The notes beneath the pieces were generated by a model. The model did no database searches, was not told the DNA's origin, and was given only the letters and a program-made list of their open reading frames with translations. A program made the translations under genes and the position numbers. From the IMG/VR virus record IMGVR_UViG_647533161_000006: a DNA stretch of 19,748 nt. One strand, 5' to 3'. Shown here in pieces: positions 4,560 through 18,377 of the stretch (position 1 is the stretch's first letter; every line of letters starts with the position of its first letter). This DNA is from a virus (lineage: Duplodnaviria; Heunggongvirae; Uroviricota; Caudoviricetes).

Positions 4560-4692
4560 TTTTTGGGACTCCTGGCTGATTAAGTATGTCGATAAGGCGT
4601 TTCCATCCGTCACGTAATTTACGGGTGATTCGTTCAAGTAAAGATTCGGAAGGGCAGCCAGCAACAGGCCACCCTGCAATGGCATATTGCAT
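4528..4692 (-). CDS. cIII: CIII (FtsH/HflB inhibitor protecting CII), 54 aa
   Basis: ATG at 4692-4690 and an ending …NTYGYPD* were translated by hand (MQYAIAG…); overlaps kil in another frame as in lambda. Not in the ORF track because it is under 60 aa. Confidence 0.8.
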   Translation of the reverse strand: MQYAIAGWPVAGCPSESLLERITRKLRDGWKRLIDILNQPGVPKNGSNTYGYPD

Positions 4693-4764
4693 GGTGTGCT
4701 CCTTATTTATACATAACGAAAAACGCCTCGAGTGAAGCGTTATTGGTATGCGGTAACGCCGCGC

Positions 4765-6742: not shown

Positions 6743-7642
6743 TTATTTGATTATTTCTTTTATAAAGACTTCTTTCGGTTGGTATTTTTTATCTGATGAT
6801 TTGAGCTGGTACGTTATTGTTATATCAGCACGTACAGAAAATTTACCTGCAAAATCTGATGGGTTTACGTTGGGGCCAAGAACCATATTTACTCTTCGAT
6901 CTATTAATCCAGGGATAACAGCAGCCCAACCTTTCTCTGGATTGTCGAGGTCTAATGCACGGATTTCAACATCAACATCAAAATGATCCTGAGTATATGA
7001 CTCTGGTGTGAAGACAACTTCAGTTGGGGCTTTTTTAATGGTTTCAGCGGGAATGGTCACTGTACCACCCCCTGTACCTATGACCATCGTAGATCCTTCG
7101 TCTGCCCTAGCTGGGGCAAGCGTCTTAATGGAACTTTTGGCAAGAGTCTTCTTATTGGTTACCGTGCTTTCTATGATTGCTTGAAGACGGTCAGGTGAAA
7201 TATTAGCCTCACCGGCACCAATATTGATGATTGTATTGTTATTTGCTTCAAAGTGGGAGGTGTTGCTTGGAGCCATAGCCTTAGTTGCTAGAACTAAGCC
7301 ATATCCAACCAGACCAATAACAACAGCACCAACGAGAGCGTTTCTCATTTTCCCATTTCCGATCTTTGCATGAGCGCCAGCAAGAAACTTGTCCATTTCT
7401 TCTTGGCTACCAAAGAGGAGTTTAATAACAATATCTTCATAAAGGCTTCCTGCTTCTAATCGCGCAACATGCACCGATATATCAAGGATATTAGCCCCTG
7501 TCAGTTCCTGCAAAACACCTTCTGATTGTTTTGCGATGGCCTCCCACCCTTGAAGGGAGGTAATCACATCTTTGATGCTTACAGGTTCTTTAGTTGAATA
7601 ATATATGTTTTCGGTAAAGGTTAAAGATAATTCTTGGGACAT
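6743..7642 (-). CDS. Uncharacterised single-pass membrane protein, 299 aa, in the rexAB-equivalent slot
   Basis: Long ATG-initiated ORF (ATG 7642-7640) with a GAGGG SD upstream, co-oriented with and downstream of cI. One hydrophobic segment (NALVGAVVIGLVGYGLVLATKAMA) separates an N-terminal ~100-aa domain from a Gly/Thr-rich ~175-aa C-terminal domain. Visibly AT-rich compared with flanking phage genes; no family recognised. Confidence 0.7.
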   Translation of the reverse strand: MSQELSLTFTENIYYSTKEPVSIKDVITSLQGWEAIAKQSEGVLQELTGANILDISVHVARLEAGSLYEDIVIKLLFGSQEEMDKFLAGAHAKIGNGKMRNALVGAVVIGLVGYGLVLATKAMAPSNTSHFEANNNTIINIGAGEANISPDRLQAIIESTVTNKKTLAKSSIKTLAPARADEGSTMVIGTGGGTVTIPAETIKKAPTEVVFTPESYTQDHFDVDVEIRALDLDNPEKGWAAVIPGLIDRRVNMVLGPNVNPSDFAGKFSVRADITITYQLKSSDKKYQPKEVFIKEIIK

Positions 7643-13232: not shown

Positions 13233-13369
13233 TGTTTGAGTTTTATATGGCAGAACGTCTTCGCCACCGCTGGGTGCGTCTGCGCTTATATCGTTTCCCC
13301 GGTTCTGTTTTGACCGATTACCGAATACTGAAGAATTACGCCAAAACACTGACAGGAGCAGGAGTATGA
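13229..13369 (+). CDS. ylcG: YlcG-like small protein, 46 aa
   Basis: Hand-translated [46 protein letters not shown]; start overlaps the rusA stop; rusA-ylcG-Q order as in DLP12-type prophages. Confidence 0.55.
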
Positions 13370-13454
13370 AGTCAGAGATAACAATCAACTAATACTGTTT
13401 TGCTGATTTTTGCTTGTAATTGGCGTTCTGGTCTGATTTTTGTGGAGTAAGTTG

Positions 13455-13832
13455 ATGCGTGATATTCAGATGGTTCTTGAGCGTTGGGGAGCGTGGGCGG
13501 CTAATAATCATGAAGATGTGACCTGGTCGTCCATTGCCGCCGGTTTTAAGGGATTAATTCCTTCAAAAGTAAAATCTCGCCCGCAATGTTGTGACGATGA
13601 CGCGATGATCATTTGCGGGTGCATGGCCCGTCTGAAAAATAACAACAGCGATTTGCATGATTTGTTAGTGGACTATTATGTCGGCGGCATGACTTTTATG
13701 GCGCTTGCGCGTAAGCATGGTAGATCTGATTGTTGGATTGGCAGGATGCTCCAAAAAGCTGAGGGCGTAGTGGAGGGCATGCTGATGGTGTTGGATCTCA
13801 GATTGGAGATGGATGCTGATTGTTTGAGATAA
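13455..13832 (+). CDS. Q: Late-gene antiterminator Q (phage 82 / DLP12 QuuD type), 125 aa
   Basis: From ATG 13455 (GGAG SD 8 nt upstream): [76 protein letters not shown]… recognised as 82-type Q. The ORF-track entry starts at an upstream TTG. Confidence 0.82.
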
Positions 13833-13930
13833 TTAAAGGAAAAGTTGCTGTCTGGTTATCATTAGACTAATGTTTCAAATGTTAGAATCGCAACGTAGTT
13901 ATGATCATATAACAGCTTGTTCCCTGATTT
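13833..13930 (+). promoter_or_regulatory. Expected PR' late promoter and qut site region (not resolved to bases)
   Basis: Immediately downstream of Q and upstream of a plus-strand terminator, as in lambdoid late-control regions; candidate -10 TAGAAT at 13883-13888 but no well-spaced -35. Confidence 0.35.
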
Positions 13931-13959
13931 AGCCAGCCTCCCCAAAGGCTGGTTTTTTT
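13931..13959 (+). terminator. Intrinsic terminator (tR'-equivalent) downstream of Q
   Basis: AGCCAGCC-TCCCCAAA-GGCTGG hairpin followed by TTTTTTT on the plus strand. Confidence 0.6.
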
Positions 13960-13987
13960 CTAATAAGTATCAATCCGGTTAGGTATT

Positions 13988-14512
13988 TTATTGTTTGACC
14001 CATAATAGTTCATTGACATTGAATCCCAATTTTTGAGCAGTACGCACATAGTCTGCTTTTACATTATCTGGAATAGTTGGAGTCCGTGCCAGAATCCATA
14101 GGTATTCTCTGTTCGGACCACTGACAAGAGCATACTTATACTCATCATCCAGTTTGATTACATTATAGCCACCATAGAAGGGGCCAAAAAACGAAACCTT
14201 CAACGCTGCAGTTGTATTATCTCCTGTAAAGTATGCTTTACCTTCGCTCTCGCTCCATTTGTTTTTCGTTGGGTCATATCCACGATTAAGTACACTAATC
14301 CCTCCGTCGTTCCGTTTCCCATAAGTGGCGCTGACCTGTTCCAGACCACGTTCAAATCGGTTCTCAAGCCGAGCTATTTCATACCATTTTCCGAGGTAGC
14401 GGTTGGTGTCAAAATTTGTAATCGGCTGCACACCTTTAGGTGGTGTCGGGGCCTTACATGCTATCAGAGTGAAAGAGAGTGCAATGCCAGTCAACACAGG
14501 CCATAACTTCAT
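13988..14512 (-). CDS. Blc-like outer-membrane lipocalin lipoprotein, 174 aa (moron)
   Basis: Signal peptide with lipobox (…FTLIAC) then lipocalin-type sequence (NFDTNRYLGKWYEIARLENRFERGLEQV…KVSFFGPFYGGYNVI…YLWILARTP) closely resembling bacterial lipocalin Blc; opposite strand to the late operon. Confidence 0.85.
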   Translation of the reverse strand: MKLWPVLTGIALSFTLIACKAPTPPKGVQPITNFDTNRYLGKWYEIARLENRFERGLEQVSATYGKRNDGGISVLNRGYDPTKNKWSESEGKAYFTGDNTTAALKVSFFGPFYGGYNVIKLDDEYKYALVSGPNREYLWILARTPTIPDNVKADYVRTAQKLGFNVNELLWVKQ

Positions 14513-14704
14513 AATATATCCTGTACTTTTGATAGTTGAGAGTAAGTATTAAAGATAGATGATTACTACCGATCACCTAAAGAACTTTCCTACTATATTA
14601 GGAATAGTCCATAACAAAAAAATTGTCAGTGATGACGGCAGAAAGGCAGTTTAGGTCGTGTACTACACTGTTAACCTGTTAATGAATTAGTCAAGGGGTA
14701 GGCA

Positions 14705-15664
14705 ATGATAAAAAAACCTGTCGTTGGGATCAGTGGTTGTTTGGCCGGTTCTTCTGTCCGTTTTGATGGTGGTCACAAAAGAGCTAGCTTTTTAATGGAC
14801 AAATTACTGGAATGGGTAACATTCAAACCAGTATGTCCGGAAATGGCTATAGGGCTTCCAGTTCCGCGTCCTGCTCTACGTCTTGTTCGCTCGGCGCAAG
14901 GAAATATACGGATGTGTTTCAGCCACGACCAGAATGAGGATGTTACAGAGAAAATGACAGAGTTTAGTCGTTCTTATCTTGACAAATTAAAGGATGTATC
15001 GGGATTTGTGGTTTGTGCAAAATCTCCTAGCTGTGGTATGGAACGCGTGCGTGTATATGATGAAAATGGTAATCGTGGTCGTAAAGATGGAGTGGGACTA
15101 TTTACGAGCACGTTGATGGAAAGGTTTTCCTGGCTACCGGTTGAAGAGGATGGGCGACTACATGATCCAGTGCTTCGTGAAAACTTTGTTGAAAGAGTAT
15201 TTGCTTTACATGAGCTCAATCATCTTTATAAAGCGAAATTATCAAGAAGGGAATTATTAGCTTTTCATAGCCGTTATAAGCTTCAGTTGTTGGCGCATAG
15301 CCAGGCCGGTTATAAAGAGATGGGGCCATTTGTGGCTGCAATACATGAGTGGGCAGACCTTGAATCATACTTTGAGGTGTATCGTGAGAAGCTGATGGCG
15401 ATTCTCAGAAAACCTGCATCACGTAAAAATCACACGAATGTGCTGATGCATATACAGGGATATTTTAGTAACTGCTTAAATACACGTCAGCGTAAAGAGT
15501 TGAGCGATGTTATACTTAACTATCGAGCTGGCACGCTACCTCTTCTTGCGCCATTAACTTTGCTGAAGCATTACTTGGCAGAGTATCCTGATGATTATTT
15601 GCTTATACAGAATTACTTCCACCCCTATCCTGATGAACTGGCTCTAAGACTCTTGGTGAACTAG
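14705..15664 (+). CDS. DUF523/DUF1722-like two-domain protein (TudS/YbgA-like), 319 aa (moron)
   Basis: ATG 14705 with AAGGGGTAGG SD. N-terminal half has Cys-containing motifs (GISGCLAGSSVRFDGG, PVCPE, CAKSPSCGME) reminiscent of DUF523/TudS-type Fe-S proteins; C-terminal half resembles DUF1722. Family call is from memory, not a search. Confidence 0.6.
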   Translation: MIKKPVVGISGCLAGSSVRFDGGHKRASFLMDKLLEWVTFKPVCPEMAIGLPVPRPALRLVRSAQGNIRMCFSHDQNEDVTEKMTEFSRSYLDKLKDVSGFVVCAKSPSCGMERVRVYDENGNRGRKDGVGLFTSTLMERFSWLPVEEDGRLHDPVLRENFVERVFALHELNHLYKAKLSRRELLAFHSRYKLQLLAHSQAGYKEMGPFVAAIHEWADLESYFEVYREKLMAILRKPASRKNHTNVLMHIQGYFSNCLNTRQRKELSDVILNYRAGTLPLLAPLTLLKHYLAEYPDDYLLIQNYFHPYPDELALRLLVN

Positions 15665-15982
15665 GCGTTTGGAATGCACCAACAAGATGATTTTCTCCTT
15701 AGAGAATGTTTACAATCGTAAAAACTTCACTATGATATCTATAGTTGTACAGTTTGTAAAAAAATTCGGTTCATGCTTAAGGTAATGTTAATATGTTAAT
15801 TAATGATTAATAATCAAGCAAGCCAAAAATAGTTCTGTTTAATCTAGTATTACATAAATATTTTAAAGAAAATATCAAAGTTCATGATGATATAATGAGA
15901 TTTTTCTCATTGAAAATATGGCAATTTTAATATTTCCACCTATACTTACTTAACTCAAATCTAATTATGTCAGGTGGATGGT

Positions 15983-16714
15983 ATGCCATGCATATGTTCT
16001 ATCATTTTGGTTTTGAACTCGTTTGATATCCGGCTTGGTAAAGAAAAAATCTCTCTAAAAAAAGGAAGTGTTGTTGCTATAGAATACAATTTAAAAGTTT
16101 TCTTTTCTTCAAATAAAGATAATATAATGATCGTGGATATTGAAGAGAAAACAGTTAATGACTTCTTTAAAAACAATACACTCTCACCTTTTTCTGTAAG
16201 AAGATTTTATTCAGCATACTTGATAGTAAACTGTACAGACTATTCATTGTTAAAGAACTTGATAGGTTGCTTGAATTGTGATGGTGAAACTACGGCTGTA
16301 GTTAAAAATTCAATATTATTTGCATGTCTTGCTATTTTATCCTCGGAAAAAATGTTTCAGAGTTTTTTGTTTGGGTGTCTTAATAGTTTAGGAAGCAAAG
16401 TTAAGGCTATTATTCACTCGGACATATCTGCAGCATGGAGACTTTGTGATATTTCTTCAAGACTATGTCTGAGTGAAAGTTTGTTAAAAAGAAAACTAAA
16501 ACACGAAGGCTTATCATTTAGCAAATTAATTCTTGAAGAACGAATGGTGATGGCTGAAAGGTTATTAAGCTACAATTTCTATCCTGTTGGGAAAGTTGCT
16601 AAAATATGTGGTTATGAAAGCGCGTCATATTTTATAAGTGTTTTCAGAAGATATTTTGGTGTTCCCCCCCATGAATATTCATCAAGATTTTTTTTAGAAA
16701 AAGGCAAGATGTAA
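15983..16714 (+). CDS. AraC/XylS-family transcriptional regulator, about 243 aa (moron; very AT-rich)
   Basis: C-terminal AraC-type HTH signature (…GKVAKICGYESASYFISVFRRYFGVPPHEY…). In-frame ATG 15983 with AGGTGG SD 7 nt upstream (the ORF-track entry starts at GTG 15974). Preceded by ~300 bp of extremely AT-rich DNA. Confidence 0.75.
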   Translation: MPCICSIILVLNSFDIRLGKEKISLKKGSVVAIEYNLKVFFSSNKDNIMIVDIEEKTVNDFFKNNTLSPFSVRRFYSAYLIVNCTDYSLLKNLIGCLNCDGETTAVVKNSILFACLAILSSEKMFQSFLFGCLNSLGSKVKAIIHSDISAAWRLCDISSRLCLSESLLKRKLKHEGLSFSKLILEERMVMAERLLSYNFYPVGKVAKICGYESASYFISVFRRYFGVPPHEYSSRFFLEKGKM

Positions 16715-16776
16715 CGTGATGCGTTTTGATGATTTTGTAATTTTCATATTTGATGATTATATGATGCTTTCAGCTA

Positions 16777-16807
16777 CGCCAGAATAATCGCTGGCGTTTT
16801 TCTTTTC
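16777..16807 (+). terminator. Intrinsic terminator downstream of the AraC-like gene
   Basis: CGCCAG-AATAATCG-CTGGCG hairpin followed by TTTTTCTTTT on the plus strand. Confidence 0.55.
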
Positions 16808-16881
16808 TAATGTAACTTCTGTATCTTTCCCTCTTTCATTCCAAACCGTGTACACCATCCGTTATTCGCGGAGGTGAGGCT

Positions 16882-17097
16882 ATGAAATCCATGGACAAGT
16901 TAACAACGGGCATTGCCTACGGCACCTCTGCAGGCAGTGCTGGCTACTGGTTTTTACAGTGGCTTGATCAGGTCAGTCCGTCACAGTGGGCGGCGATTGG
17001 AGTGCTTGGAAGCCTTGTGTTGGGTTTTCTCACTTATCTGACAAACCTTTATTTCAAGATTAAAGAAGATAAGCGTAAGGCTGCGAGAGGTGAATAA
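16882..17097 (+). CDS. S: Pinholin S21 (dual-start: antiholin from Met1, holin from Met4), 71 aa
   Basis: [71 protein letters not shown] matches the phage 21 pinholin, including the M-K-x-M dual-start motif; GGAGGTGAGG SD. Confidence 0.9.
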
Positions 17098-17594
17098 TGT
17101 CGCCATCATTACGCAAGGCTGTAGCAGCTGCTATTGGTGGTGGGGCTGTTGCCATAGCGTCTGTGCTCATCACTGGTCCGAGTGGTGACGATGGTCTGGA
17201 AGGTGTCAGCTACATACCATATAAAGATATTGTTGGTGTATGGACTGTATGTCACGGGCATACAGGAAAAGACATCATGCTCGGTAAAACGTATACCAAA
17301 GCAGAATGCAAAGCACTCTTGAATAAAGACCTTGCCACTGTCGCCAGACAAATTAACCCGTACATCAAAGTCGATATACCGGAAACAACGCGCGGCGCTC
17401 TTTACTCATTCGTTTACAACGTGGGTGCTGGCAATTTCAGAACATCGACGCTTCTTCGCAAAATAAACCAGGGCGATATCAAAGGCGCATGTGATCAGTT
17501 ACGTCGCTGGACATATGCTGGCGGTAAGCAATGGAAAGGTCTCATGACTCGTCGTGAGATTGAGCGTGAAATCTGTTTGTGGGGTCAGCAATGA
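17097..17594 (+). CDS. R: SAR endolysin (phage 21 R-type lysozyme with N-terminal signal-anchor-release domain), 165 aa
   Basis: N-terminal weakly hydrophobic Gly/Ala-rich SAR segment ([20 protein letters not shown]) followed by a lysozyme-type domain; start overlaps the S stop (TAATG). Confidence 0.9.
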
Positions 17595-18052
17595 ACAGAG
17601 TAACCGCGATTATCTCCGCTCTGGTTATCTGCATCATCGTCTGCCTGTCATGGGCTGTTAATCATTACCGTGATAACGCCATTACCTACAAAGCCCAGCG
17701 CGACAAAAATGCCAGAGAACTGAAGCTGGCGAACGCGGCAATTACTGACATGCAGATGCGTCAGCGTGATGTTGCTGCGCTCGATGCAAAATACACGAAG
17801 GAGTTAGCTGATGCGAAAGCTGAAAATGATGCTCTGCGTGATGATGTTGCCGCTGGTCGTCGTCGGTTGCACATCAAAGCAGTCTGTCAGTCAGTGCGTG
17901 AAGCCACCACCGCCTCCGGCGTGGATAATGCAGCCTCCCCCCGACTGGCAGACACCGCTGAACGGGATTATTTCACCCTCAGAGAGAGGCTGATCACGAT
18001 GCAAAAACAACTGGAAGGAACCCAGAAGTATATTAATGAGCAGTGCAGATAG
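17591..18052 (+). CDS. Rz: Rz i-spanin, 153 aa from ATG 17591
   Basis: N-terminal transmembrane segment, coiled-coil-like periplasmic domain, start overlapping the R stop; contains the embedded Rz1 frame. Confidence 0.85.
17811..17993 (+). CDS. Rz1: Rz1 o-spanin lipoprotein, 60 aa, embedded in Rz in the +1 frame
   Basis: Signal peptide with lipobox (…LVVVGC) and a proline-rich mature region ([15 protein letters not shown]); GAAGGAG SD upstream of ATG 17811. Confidence 0.78.
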
Positions 18053-18083: not shown

Positions 18084-18377
18084 TTATTGTGAGCAATAGA
18101 CACGCGCTTCCAGCGGAGTATAAATGCCTAAAGTAATAAAACCGAGCAATCCATTTACGAATGTTTGCTGGGTTTCTGTTTTAACAACATTTTCTGCGCC
18201 GCCACAAATTTTGGCTGCATCAACAGTTTTCTCCTGTCCAATTCCCGAAACGAAGAAGTGATGGGTGATGGTTTCCTTTGGTGTTACTGCTGTCGGTTTG
18301 TTTCCAACAGTAAACGTCTGTTGAGCACATCCTGTAATAAGCATTGCCAGAGCGGCAGAAAACAACATTTTTTTCAT
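18084..18377 (-). CDS. bor: Bor outer-membrane lipoprotein (serum-resistance moron), 97 aa from ATG 18377
   Basis: MKKMLFSAALAMLITGCAQQTFTVGNKPTAVTPKETITHHFFVSGIGQEKTVDAAKICGGAENVVKTETQQTFVNGLLGFITLGIYTPLEARVYCSQ matches lambda Bor, with lipobox LITGC. Confidence 0.9.
   Translation of the reverse strand: MKKMLFSAALAMLITGCAQQTFTVGNKPTAVTPKETITHHFFVSGIGQEKTVDAAKICGGAENVVKTETQQTFVNGLLGFITLGIYTPLEARVYCSQ

Follow-up and report, generated by a model that had tools for sequence, protein, structure and literature searches.

The window analysed here is the whole of IMG/VR virus record IMGVR_UViG_647533161_000006 (Caudoviricetes; 19,748 nucleotides). Its subject is a lipocalin gene, blc, which lies in the interval between the late-gene antiterminator gene Q and the holin gene S and is encoded on the strand opposite to both. 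The features of the gene are as follows.

13988..14512, minus strand: blc-type lipocalin lipoprotein gene, of a lineage referred to below as 'Blc2'; intact open reading frame (ORF) of 174 codons
14456..14512, minus strand: lipoprotein signal peptide, residues 1-19 of the phage Blc, read from the sequence
14456-14467, minus strand: lipobox L-I-A-C, with Cys19 as the predicted lipidated residue and Lys20 at the +2 position

The product is near certainly, as judged from its sequence, a full-length Blc-family lipoprotein. Its translated N-terminus reads MKLWPVLTGIALSFTLIAC followed by KAPTPP. The protein matches Pfam Lipocalin_2 (PF08212; E 2.2e-43) and scores 315.5 bits against the NCBIfam profile NF007786, 'outer membrane lipoprotein Blc', for which the curated cut-off is 267 bits, with residues 1-174 falling on positions 1-174 of the 176-position profile. 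Against Blc of Escherichia coli K-12 (b4149) it aligns without a gap, 104 of 174 residues being identical (60%), and the solved Blc structures (3MBT, 1QWD, 2ACO) are likewise matched over the full length and without gaps (E 2.6e-69 to 6e-68). The GxWYEIAR lipocalin motif is conserved and the lipobox cysteine occupies the same position as in the K-12 protein (VVAC followed by SS), so that the two share family, length class, cysteine position and a +2 residue other than Asp. The profile score, the lipobox with a +2 residue (Lys) compatible with the outer membrane and the predicted lipocalin beta-barrel fold all place the phage protein in the Blc family, and by the lipobox and +2 rules it would be lipidated and sorted to the outer membrane. 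A first-pass annotation of this DNA had described a lipoprotein with the lipobox LIAC closely resembling Blc; the family assignment and the lipobox stand, with a profile score above the cut-off and a gapless alignment to K-12 Blc, but the resemblance is less close than this wording implied, since identity to the E. coli protein is only 60% and the nearest cellular relatives (82%) are found in other enterobacteria.

The gene is phage cargo, because the Q-to-S segment of the window (13400-17100) is 99.9-100% identical to the corresponding part of isolated temperate, plaque-forming lambdoid coliphages (Lambda_2E9, 4B5, ev203, 1H12 and others). In the records of those phages 'Lipocalin Blc' is already annotated, and the window protein is 100% identical to gp65 of phage 1H12. 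The gene has also been named as a moron, present in more than 50% of infant-gut lambdas (Mathieu et al, 2020; PMC6969025); the published moron and the gene described here are one and the same, with no difference between them. That blc is a phage moron is therefore known, from GenBank annotation and from that study. The protein accessions and locus tags of phage blc appeared in no publication in a literature search. What the present analysis adds, and what is described in neither PMC6969025 nor the RudS study discussed below (PMC11417400), is the assignment to the Blc2 lineage, the co-acquisition with the gene rudS_vir, the loss of an MlrA-like regulator together with its dyad, and the invariance of the cassette.

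Phage-type blc with its upstream spacer is present in 1139 of 5426 complete E. coli genomes (~21%), where the copies fall into two allele groups, one at 99% identity or above and the other at about 94%. The latter is represented by a defective Qin-like prophage of BL21(DE3) (NC_012971.2; locus L007, 8468-11057), in which Q and blc are intact although IS3 cuts rudS after about 49 codons and the lysis genes are gone. The blc alleles of the window and of BL21 differ at 26 nucleotide and 7 amino-acid positions (dN/dS 0.106), which indicates purifying selection on blc while resident in prophages. Among viral sequences, the gene order was followed in the best 80 IMG/VR contigs (96-100% protein identity): in 80 of 80, wherever the contig reaches, Q is followed by blc in the opposite orientation and then by rudS, the AraC-like gene and S in the orientation of Q, and blc is full-length in all 80. 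A further copy of phage-type blc, 97% identical, is encoded by contig JARKOR010000135.1 (locus L008, 2113 bp), which has been binned as 'Candidatus Nanosynbacter' and is most likely a mis-binned fragment of an E. coli prophage.

The relationship of the phage gene to cellular blc genes was examined by identity, gene context and tree position. The closest cellular Blc proteins, at 71-82% identity, come from Leclercia, Enterobacter nematophilus, Huaxiibacter, Buttiauxella, Kosakonia, Raoultella, Cedecea and Scandinavium, whereas a K-12-like group at 56-63% identity (Salmonella, Citrobacter, Atlantibacter, Enterobacter and others) has the gene in a frd-(ampC)-blc-gdx context. Gene context was scored by tblastn with reference proteins together with gene calls on the contigs. 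In most of the 71-82% group blc is divergent from a gene for a MerR-family regulator with MlrA-type domains, and the genes that follow the regulator take one of two orders. In the first, merR is followed by rudS, in some cases with a transthyretin-like gene (ttr) between them; in the second, it is followed by a cyclopropane-fatty-acid (CFA)-synthase operon (SnoaL2-SDR-amine oxidase-DUF1365-CFA synthase-DUF2878). These arrangements were found in Leclercia, Enterobacter nematophilus, Buttiauxella, Raoultella, Cedecea, Scandinavium and metagenome contigs. Huaxiibacter is an exception in that ttr and rudS are kept and the regulator is absent, and beside blc of Kosakonia or Symbiopectobacterium tblastn detected none of the reference context genes.

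In a neighbour-joining tree, drawn without bootstrap, the phage alleles form the sister group of the MerR-linked Blc2 clade. Buttiauxella izardii holds one blc of each group, which shows that the two groups are paralogous lineages. We therefore rejected the phage gene as an orthologue of E. coli chromosomal blc: it shares 56-63% identity with the frd-linked lineage as against 71-82% with the MerR/rudS-linked group, and in the tree it is sister to the latter. A diverged paralogue derived from the host's own blc, the possibility that the first-pass annotation had wished to see examined, does not emerge from the comparison; by identity, context and tree position the phage gene is a member of Blc2, a second Blc lineage of the enterobacteria. 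K-12 blc lies in the frd-ampC-blc-gdx context and has a GC content of 53.4%, whereas the phage gene falls in the Blc2 group, is carried on a phage and has a GC content of 43.6%.

The neighbour of phage blc supports this assignment to a particular kind of locus. RudS proteins encoded beside the closest chromosomal blc genes share 71-74% identity with the RudS of the phage, and blc and rudS are divergent in the phage just as they are in the cellular loci, such that removal of merR (and ttr) from the cellular locus would yield the phage arrangement. The comparison thus indicates that blc and rudS were acquired together, as a pair, from one stress-response locus of other enterobacteria, and without its regulator. 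The regulator of the Blc2 loci is 42% identical to MlrA and 37% identical to BluR, and its N-terminal DNA-binding region is almost the same as theirs. Each of nine Blc2 loci has a single copy of a 30-bp dyad, ACTTGGACAA-N10-TTGTGTAAGT, which lies ahead of rudS or the SnoaL2-CFA operon or, in Kosakonia, ahead of blc. Its positions in the nine loci, numbered as in our collection, are as follows.

L003, 4974-5003
L005, 5071-5100
L004, 4571-4600
L009, 6574-6603
L010, 6575-6604
L011, 7191-7220
L012, 7110-7139
L013, 6977-7006
L015, 7824-7853

The MlrA/BluR-like regulator encoded next to it probably uses the dyad as its operator; the dyad also resembles TGTACA-type sites near K-12 ycgZ. Allowing up to two mismatches per half-site, it had zero matches in the window and in the 1H12 and BL21 loci. 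The phage thus has both structural genes and lacks the regulator and its presumptive operator. The Blc2 loci differ from the phage in possessing the MerR gene, the transthyretin-like gene and the dyad, all three of which the phage is without; blc in the phage is moreover antisense within a late operon and about 14 points lower in GC (43.6%, against about 57% for the cellular Blc2 genes). Synonymous sites are saturated between phage blc and the chromosomal Blc2 genes, where no dN/dS can be computed. The GC gap and this saturation imply that the transfer is old or that the direct donor is unsampled. Literature searches returned no publication combining MerR, lipocalin, photolyase, cyclopropane and DUF1365, and nothing relevant for LitR together with lipocalin.

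The spacer between the divergent blc and rudS genes was compared with the cellular merR-blc spacers. Its features are listed here.

14513..14704: divergent blc/rudS intergenic region, 192 bp
14544..14551, minus strand: -10-like element TAATACTT, candidate blc promoter, 31 nt upstream of the blc ATG
14587..14599, minus strand: box AATATAGTAGGAA, the counterpart of the conserved AATATACTACGAA box of chromosomal merR-blc spacers

Two boxes, AATATAgTAgGAA (14587-14599) and TAATACTT (14544-14551), stand in register with the cellular spacers. On the plus strand the first of them contains TATATT (14594-14599), presumably the -10 element of the lost merR, which now faces rudS. Aligned with the second, six of seven merR-linked Blc2 loci have CTACACTT and Raoultella has CGACACGT; K-12 blc has the octamer CTACACTT 26 nt before its ATG, and the BL21 allele has TCATACTT at this position. 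The K-12 gene is RpoS-dependent (PMC4512719). The phage versions retain positions -11 to -7 and are without the C at -13 and the T at -12 of the chromosomal element.

The first-pass annotation had expected blc to have a promoter of its own in 14513..14704. A sigma-70 consensus scan (12 matches in total, compared with 11.2 in shuffled sequence) returned no minus-strand site in 14513-14704, leaving only the degenerate -10-like TAATACTT. An ungapped comparison anchored at the ATG matched the blc-proximal 100 nt to the Cedecea merR-blc spacer at 46 of 100 positions, against 26.7 +/- 4.3 in shuffles (p<0.0005), and several other comparisons of this kind fell at p 0.0005-0.08; because seven comparisons were made, the collinearity is only suggestive. 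When the spacer was aligned locally, with shuffled sequences as controls, no match reached significance (z 0.1-2.0), in blastn of the window cassette against the chromosomal Blc2 loci similarity began exactly at the ATGs with no homology in the spacer, and the rudS-proximal 95 nt showed no similarity to the regions upstream of chromosomal rudS. Between the window and the BL21 allele 172 of 192 spacer positions are identical, the blc-proximal part being the most conserved. Lack of conservation in the BL21 allele led us to reject a palindrome, GTGTACTACAC (14658-14668), as a possible replacement for the operator. Taken at the level of sequence, a leftward, probably weak, stationary-phase-type promoter for blc around 14544-14551 is plausible.

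The genes and transcription signals that surround blc are the following.

13455..13832, plus strand: late-gene antiterminator gene Q (Pfam Phage_antitermQ, 2.5e-51), with the ATG start of the 378-nt Q annotation in 1H12
13804-13833, plus strand: first candidate for the late promoter PR', TGGAGA, 18-nt spacer, GATAAT
13845-13850, plus strand: TTGCTG of the second PR' candidate, followed after a 17-nt spacer by TAATGT (13868-13873) and then by a -10-like TAGAAT (13883-13888)
13931..13960, plus strand: tR'-like intrinsic terminator, 9-bp stem, U7 tail, -14.9 kcal/mol, z -3.3
14705..15664, plus strand: rudS_vir, TudS(DUF523)-DUF1722 fusion, tRNA 4-thiouridine desulfidase (Pfam 2-thiour_desulf and DUF1722)
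15974..16714, plus strand: AraC-family regulator gene, YdeO/GadX-like, third gene of the cassette (Pfam HTH_18, HTH_AraC)
16776..16807, plus strand: intrinsic terminator after the AraC-like gene and upstream of S, -11.3 kcal/mol, z -3.1
16882-17097 (S), 17097-17594 (R) and 17579-18052 (Rz), plus strand: lysis genes (Pfam Phage_holin_2_1, Phage_lysozyme, Phage_lysis), with a P21-type holin
18084..18377, minus strand: bor (Pfam Lambda_Bor, 1e-30), lipobox LITGC, protein beginning MKKMLFSAALAMLITGC; annotated as Bor-like in 1H12
13815..16870: variable cargo cassette, bounded by the points where blastn homology to phage ev243 stops (13814) and resumes (16871)

This map agrees with the earlier description of blc as a minus-strand gene antisense to the late transcription unit, Q and S-R-Rz being on the plus strand, and of bor, through its Lambda_Bor match and its lipobox, as a second prophage-borne outer-membrane lipoprotein gene. 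Placing blc between Q/tR' and the lysis genes was right as to the Q-S interval and the antisense orientation, but two further cargo genes lie between blc and lysis. The first of these encodes a protein 100% identical to gp66 of phage 1H12, that is, RudS_vir, whose expression reduces the 4-thiouridine of tRNA in E. coli, an organism said to be without RudS; RudS genes are reported from light-responsive operons under MerR-family regulators, and the main text of the study that reported this does not mention a lipocalin (PMC11417400). The second encodes an AraC-like protein whose best NCBIfam matches are YdeO and GadX, both far under cut-off, and which may be a regulator of the prophage Psr/PatE/AppY acid-resistance type. 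Base composition singles out only this last gene: its GC content is 31.6%, while that of rudS is 42.7% and that of blc, at 43.6%, equals the window mean of 43.6%. Blc thus does not show the distinct base composition of a moron. It does show the replaceability of one, as in ev243 a minus-strand porin gene (OmpC/NmpC-like; locus L091, 2128-3162) fills the same Q-S slot, in the same orientation as blc, instead of 13815-16870. The break in homology at 13814 falls inside the last codons of Q (window 13790-13890 compared with L091 1891-2135), which indicates that the late-promoter/terminator segment travels with the cargo cassette, although the Q genes themselves are about 94% identical.

Several known systems offer parallels. 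The Q-S slot seems to collect genes for outer-membrane proteins that face against the late transcript; the lambda Bor and DLP12/ev243 porin (NmpC/OmpD-like) morons are likewise outer-membrane genes opposite to the late strand, with folds and functions unrelated to Blc. In Stx phages the stx genes are cargo of the Q-S interval, downstream of Q, PR' and tR'. The rudS and AraC-like genes share the slot and the orientation of stx, so that read-through under Q should express them, whereas blc is antisense and late transcription should oppose it rather than drive it. Other cargo is known from phages of this type: 1H12 has sitABCD, a manganese/iron transporter (locus L001, 21757-25206; outside the window), as has already been reported (Mathieu et al, 2020; PMC6969025).

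The geometry of the transcription signals bears on how blc could be expressed. The PR' region (13803..13888, plus strand) is conserved in the IdasGreatGrand and BL21 alleles and contains the two candidates listed above. Between the end of the tR'-like terminator and the stop codon of blc are 27 nt, and two transcription units converge there. Read on the minus strand, the same hairpin is followed by CUAAAUCAGG, with no U-tract, and would therefore be at best a weak terminator for blc. To judge from the way in which lambdoid Q proteins act, polymerase modified by Q and passing both tR' and the terminator at 16776-16807 would be expected to produce antisense RNA across blc and sense RNA of rudS and the AraC-like gene together with S-R-Rz. 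Rfam and tRNA scans of 13300-17100 returned nothing.

According to the model that we propose, blc would be transcribed leftward from a weak promoter of its own, probably of the stationary-phase type, around 14544-14551, and a leftward promoter of this kind would mean that the protein is made in the lysogen. The phage Blc would then leave the cytoplasm through Sec, receive its lipid at Cys19 and be carried by the Lol system to the periplasmic face of the outer membrane, where it may bind lysophospholipids or fatty acids as does K-12 Blc, thereby adding to the maintenance of envelope lipids under stress. Following induction, polymerase modified by Q would cross tR' and blc in antisense and silence it, and the same read-through, late in the lytic cycle, would place rudS and the AraC-like gene on one transcript with the lysis genes. 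The ancestral company of the gene (an MlrA/BluR-type regulator, RudS and CFA-synthase-type genes) suggests protection of envelope lipids under light, oxidative or stationary-phase stress.

Taken as a whole, a functional phage-borne Blc-type lipocalin is the reading that we consider probable. Expression of blc in the lysogen is about equally well favoured, to judge from the orientation of the gene, the purifying selection on it and its retention in a defective prophage. A specific role in stress is a more tentative proposal, and one that we regard as doubtful. A number of observations weigh against the overall picture. Searches by accession found no expression data for phage blc. E. coli already has a chromosomal blc, and the extra benefit of a second is not obvious. 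The gene is without a U-tract terminator of its own, the consensus promoter scan gave no minus-strand match in the spacer, and the -10-like element has lost the T at -12 and the C at -13 of the chromosomal version. For the origin from Blc2 loci, spacer homology is weak, reaching significance only when anchored at the ATG against Cedecea and more weakly against others; the tree is a neighbour-joining one drawn without bootstrap; and the GC gap (43.6% against ~57%) is large, with synonymous sites saturated.

A more far-reaching possibility, which we think rather unlikely, is that a fragment of an enterobacterial light/near-UV stress locus has been re-wired to form the cassette, which confers two activities on E. 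coli, one of Blc2 in the lysogen and one of RudS_vir in the lytic cycle. Here, Blc2 made in the lysogen would shield envelope lipids from photo-oxidative or stationary-phase stress or mend them, while RudS_vir, freed of the MlrA-like regulator and sitting downstream of PR', would be expressed by Q read-through after UV-triggered induction and would erase photo-crosslinkable 4-thiouridine from tRNA, keeping translation up for phage production. The K-12 locus that was examined holds only the canonical frd-ampC-blc-gdx copy, and no genome-wide search of E. coli for Blc2 was made.

Among explanations that compete with a functional lipocalin, the one that survives best, though we judge it unlikely, is that blc is a near-neutral passenger, carried along with a selected rudS (or AraC-like gene), redundant with chromosomal blc and poorly expressed. 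The common origin of blc and rudS in one locus would fit such a history, as would the degenerate look of the promoter with no sigma-70 consensus match, the blc that the host already owns and the filing of the family in PHROGs (PHROG 2809) as of unknown function. A neutral passenger would not, however, be expected to show a dN/dS of 0.106 between phage alleles, to be full-length in every one of the 80 viral contigs and present in 21% of E. coli genomes, or to remain intact in BL21(DE3) where IS3 has truncated the very rudS with which it would have been carried; the blc-proximal part of the spacer is also more conserved than the remainder.

It is quite improbable that the protein acts in superinfection exclusion or receptor masking, as a lipoprotein that blocks the receptor of competing phages in the manner of Cor (phi80/N15) or Llp (T5). 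This role would suit an outer-membrane lipoprotein of a prophage whose gene is oriented for expression in the lysogen, a porin gene takes the same slot and orientation in related phages, and membrane-protein morons are reported to predominate (Mathieu et al, 2020; PMC6969025). Yet the phage Blc matches no PADLOC defence model, PHROG 2809 is annotated only as 'unknown function', and the protein is an ordinary full-length Blc, aligned without gaps and with GxWYEIAR conserved, whose cellular orthologues lie in stress-response loci and not in phage-defence loci. K-12 Blc is, moreover, thought to face the periplasm.

A function in the lytic cycle, with blc made during infection or induction and, for example, modifying the envelope before lysis, is very improbable. 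The gene does lie within the late region near the lysis genes, but it is antisense to the Q-dependent late transcript and convergent with PR'/tR', such that late read-through would give antisense RNA and collide with blc transcription, and it has been kept in a defective prophage that is without lysis genes. That blc is a host chromosomal gene and no prophage cargo can be set aside, since the identity of the Q-to-S segment to isolated phage genomes refutes it, the contiguity with Q and S on which the first-pass annotation relied recurs in those plaque-forming phages, and the native blc of E. coli, with only 60% identity, occupies another site, between ampC and gdx.

Outside the cassette, two features of the window were recorded. 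An Rfam Lambda_thermo element (the cIII thermoregulator) lies at 4647-4705 on the minus strand (88.5 bits) and is the sole Rfam match in the window. An ORF of 299 amino acids (6743-7642, minus strand) lies immediately behind the cI-like repressor gene, at the place that rexAB takes in lambda; it matches nothing in Pfam or PADLOC, its family (PHROG 4506) is listed as of 'unknown function', and it is a candidate for a lysogen-expressed exclusion or defence gene.

Returning to the functional lipocalin, the protein taken by itself is an ordinary discovery. The gene is best considered jointly with rudS_vir, the two having come from a regulated stress locus and lost its regulator, and this pairing suggests phenotypes in near-UV or blue light, in photo-oxidative lipid damage and in stationary phase in preference to a generic 'membrane biogenesis'. 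Were the cassette indeed a re-wired stress locus, the opposite orientations of the two genes would be functional, with one gene serving lysogeny and the other lysis. Approximately one in five complete E. coli genomes, that of BL21(DE3) included, bears phage-type blc, which makes the phage gene a routine input to the envelope gene pool of the species.

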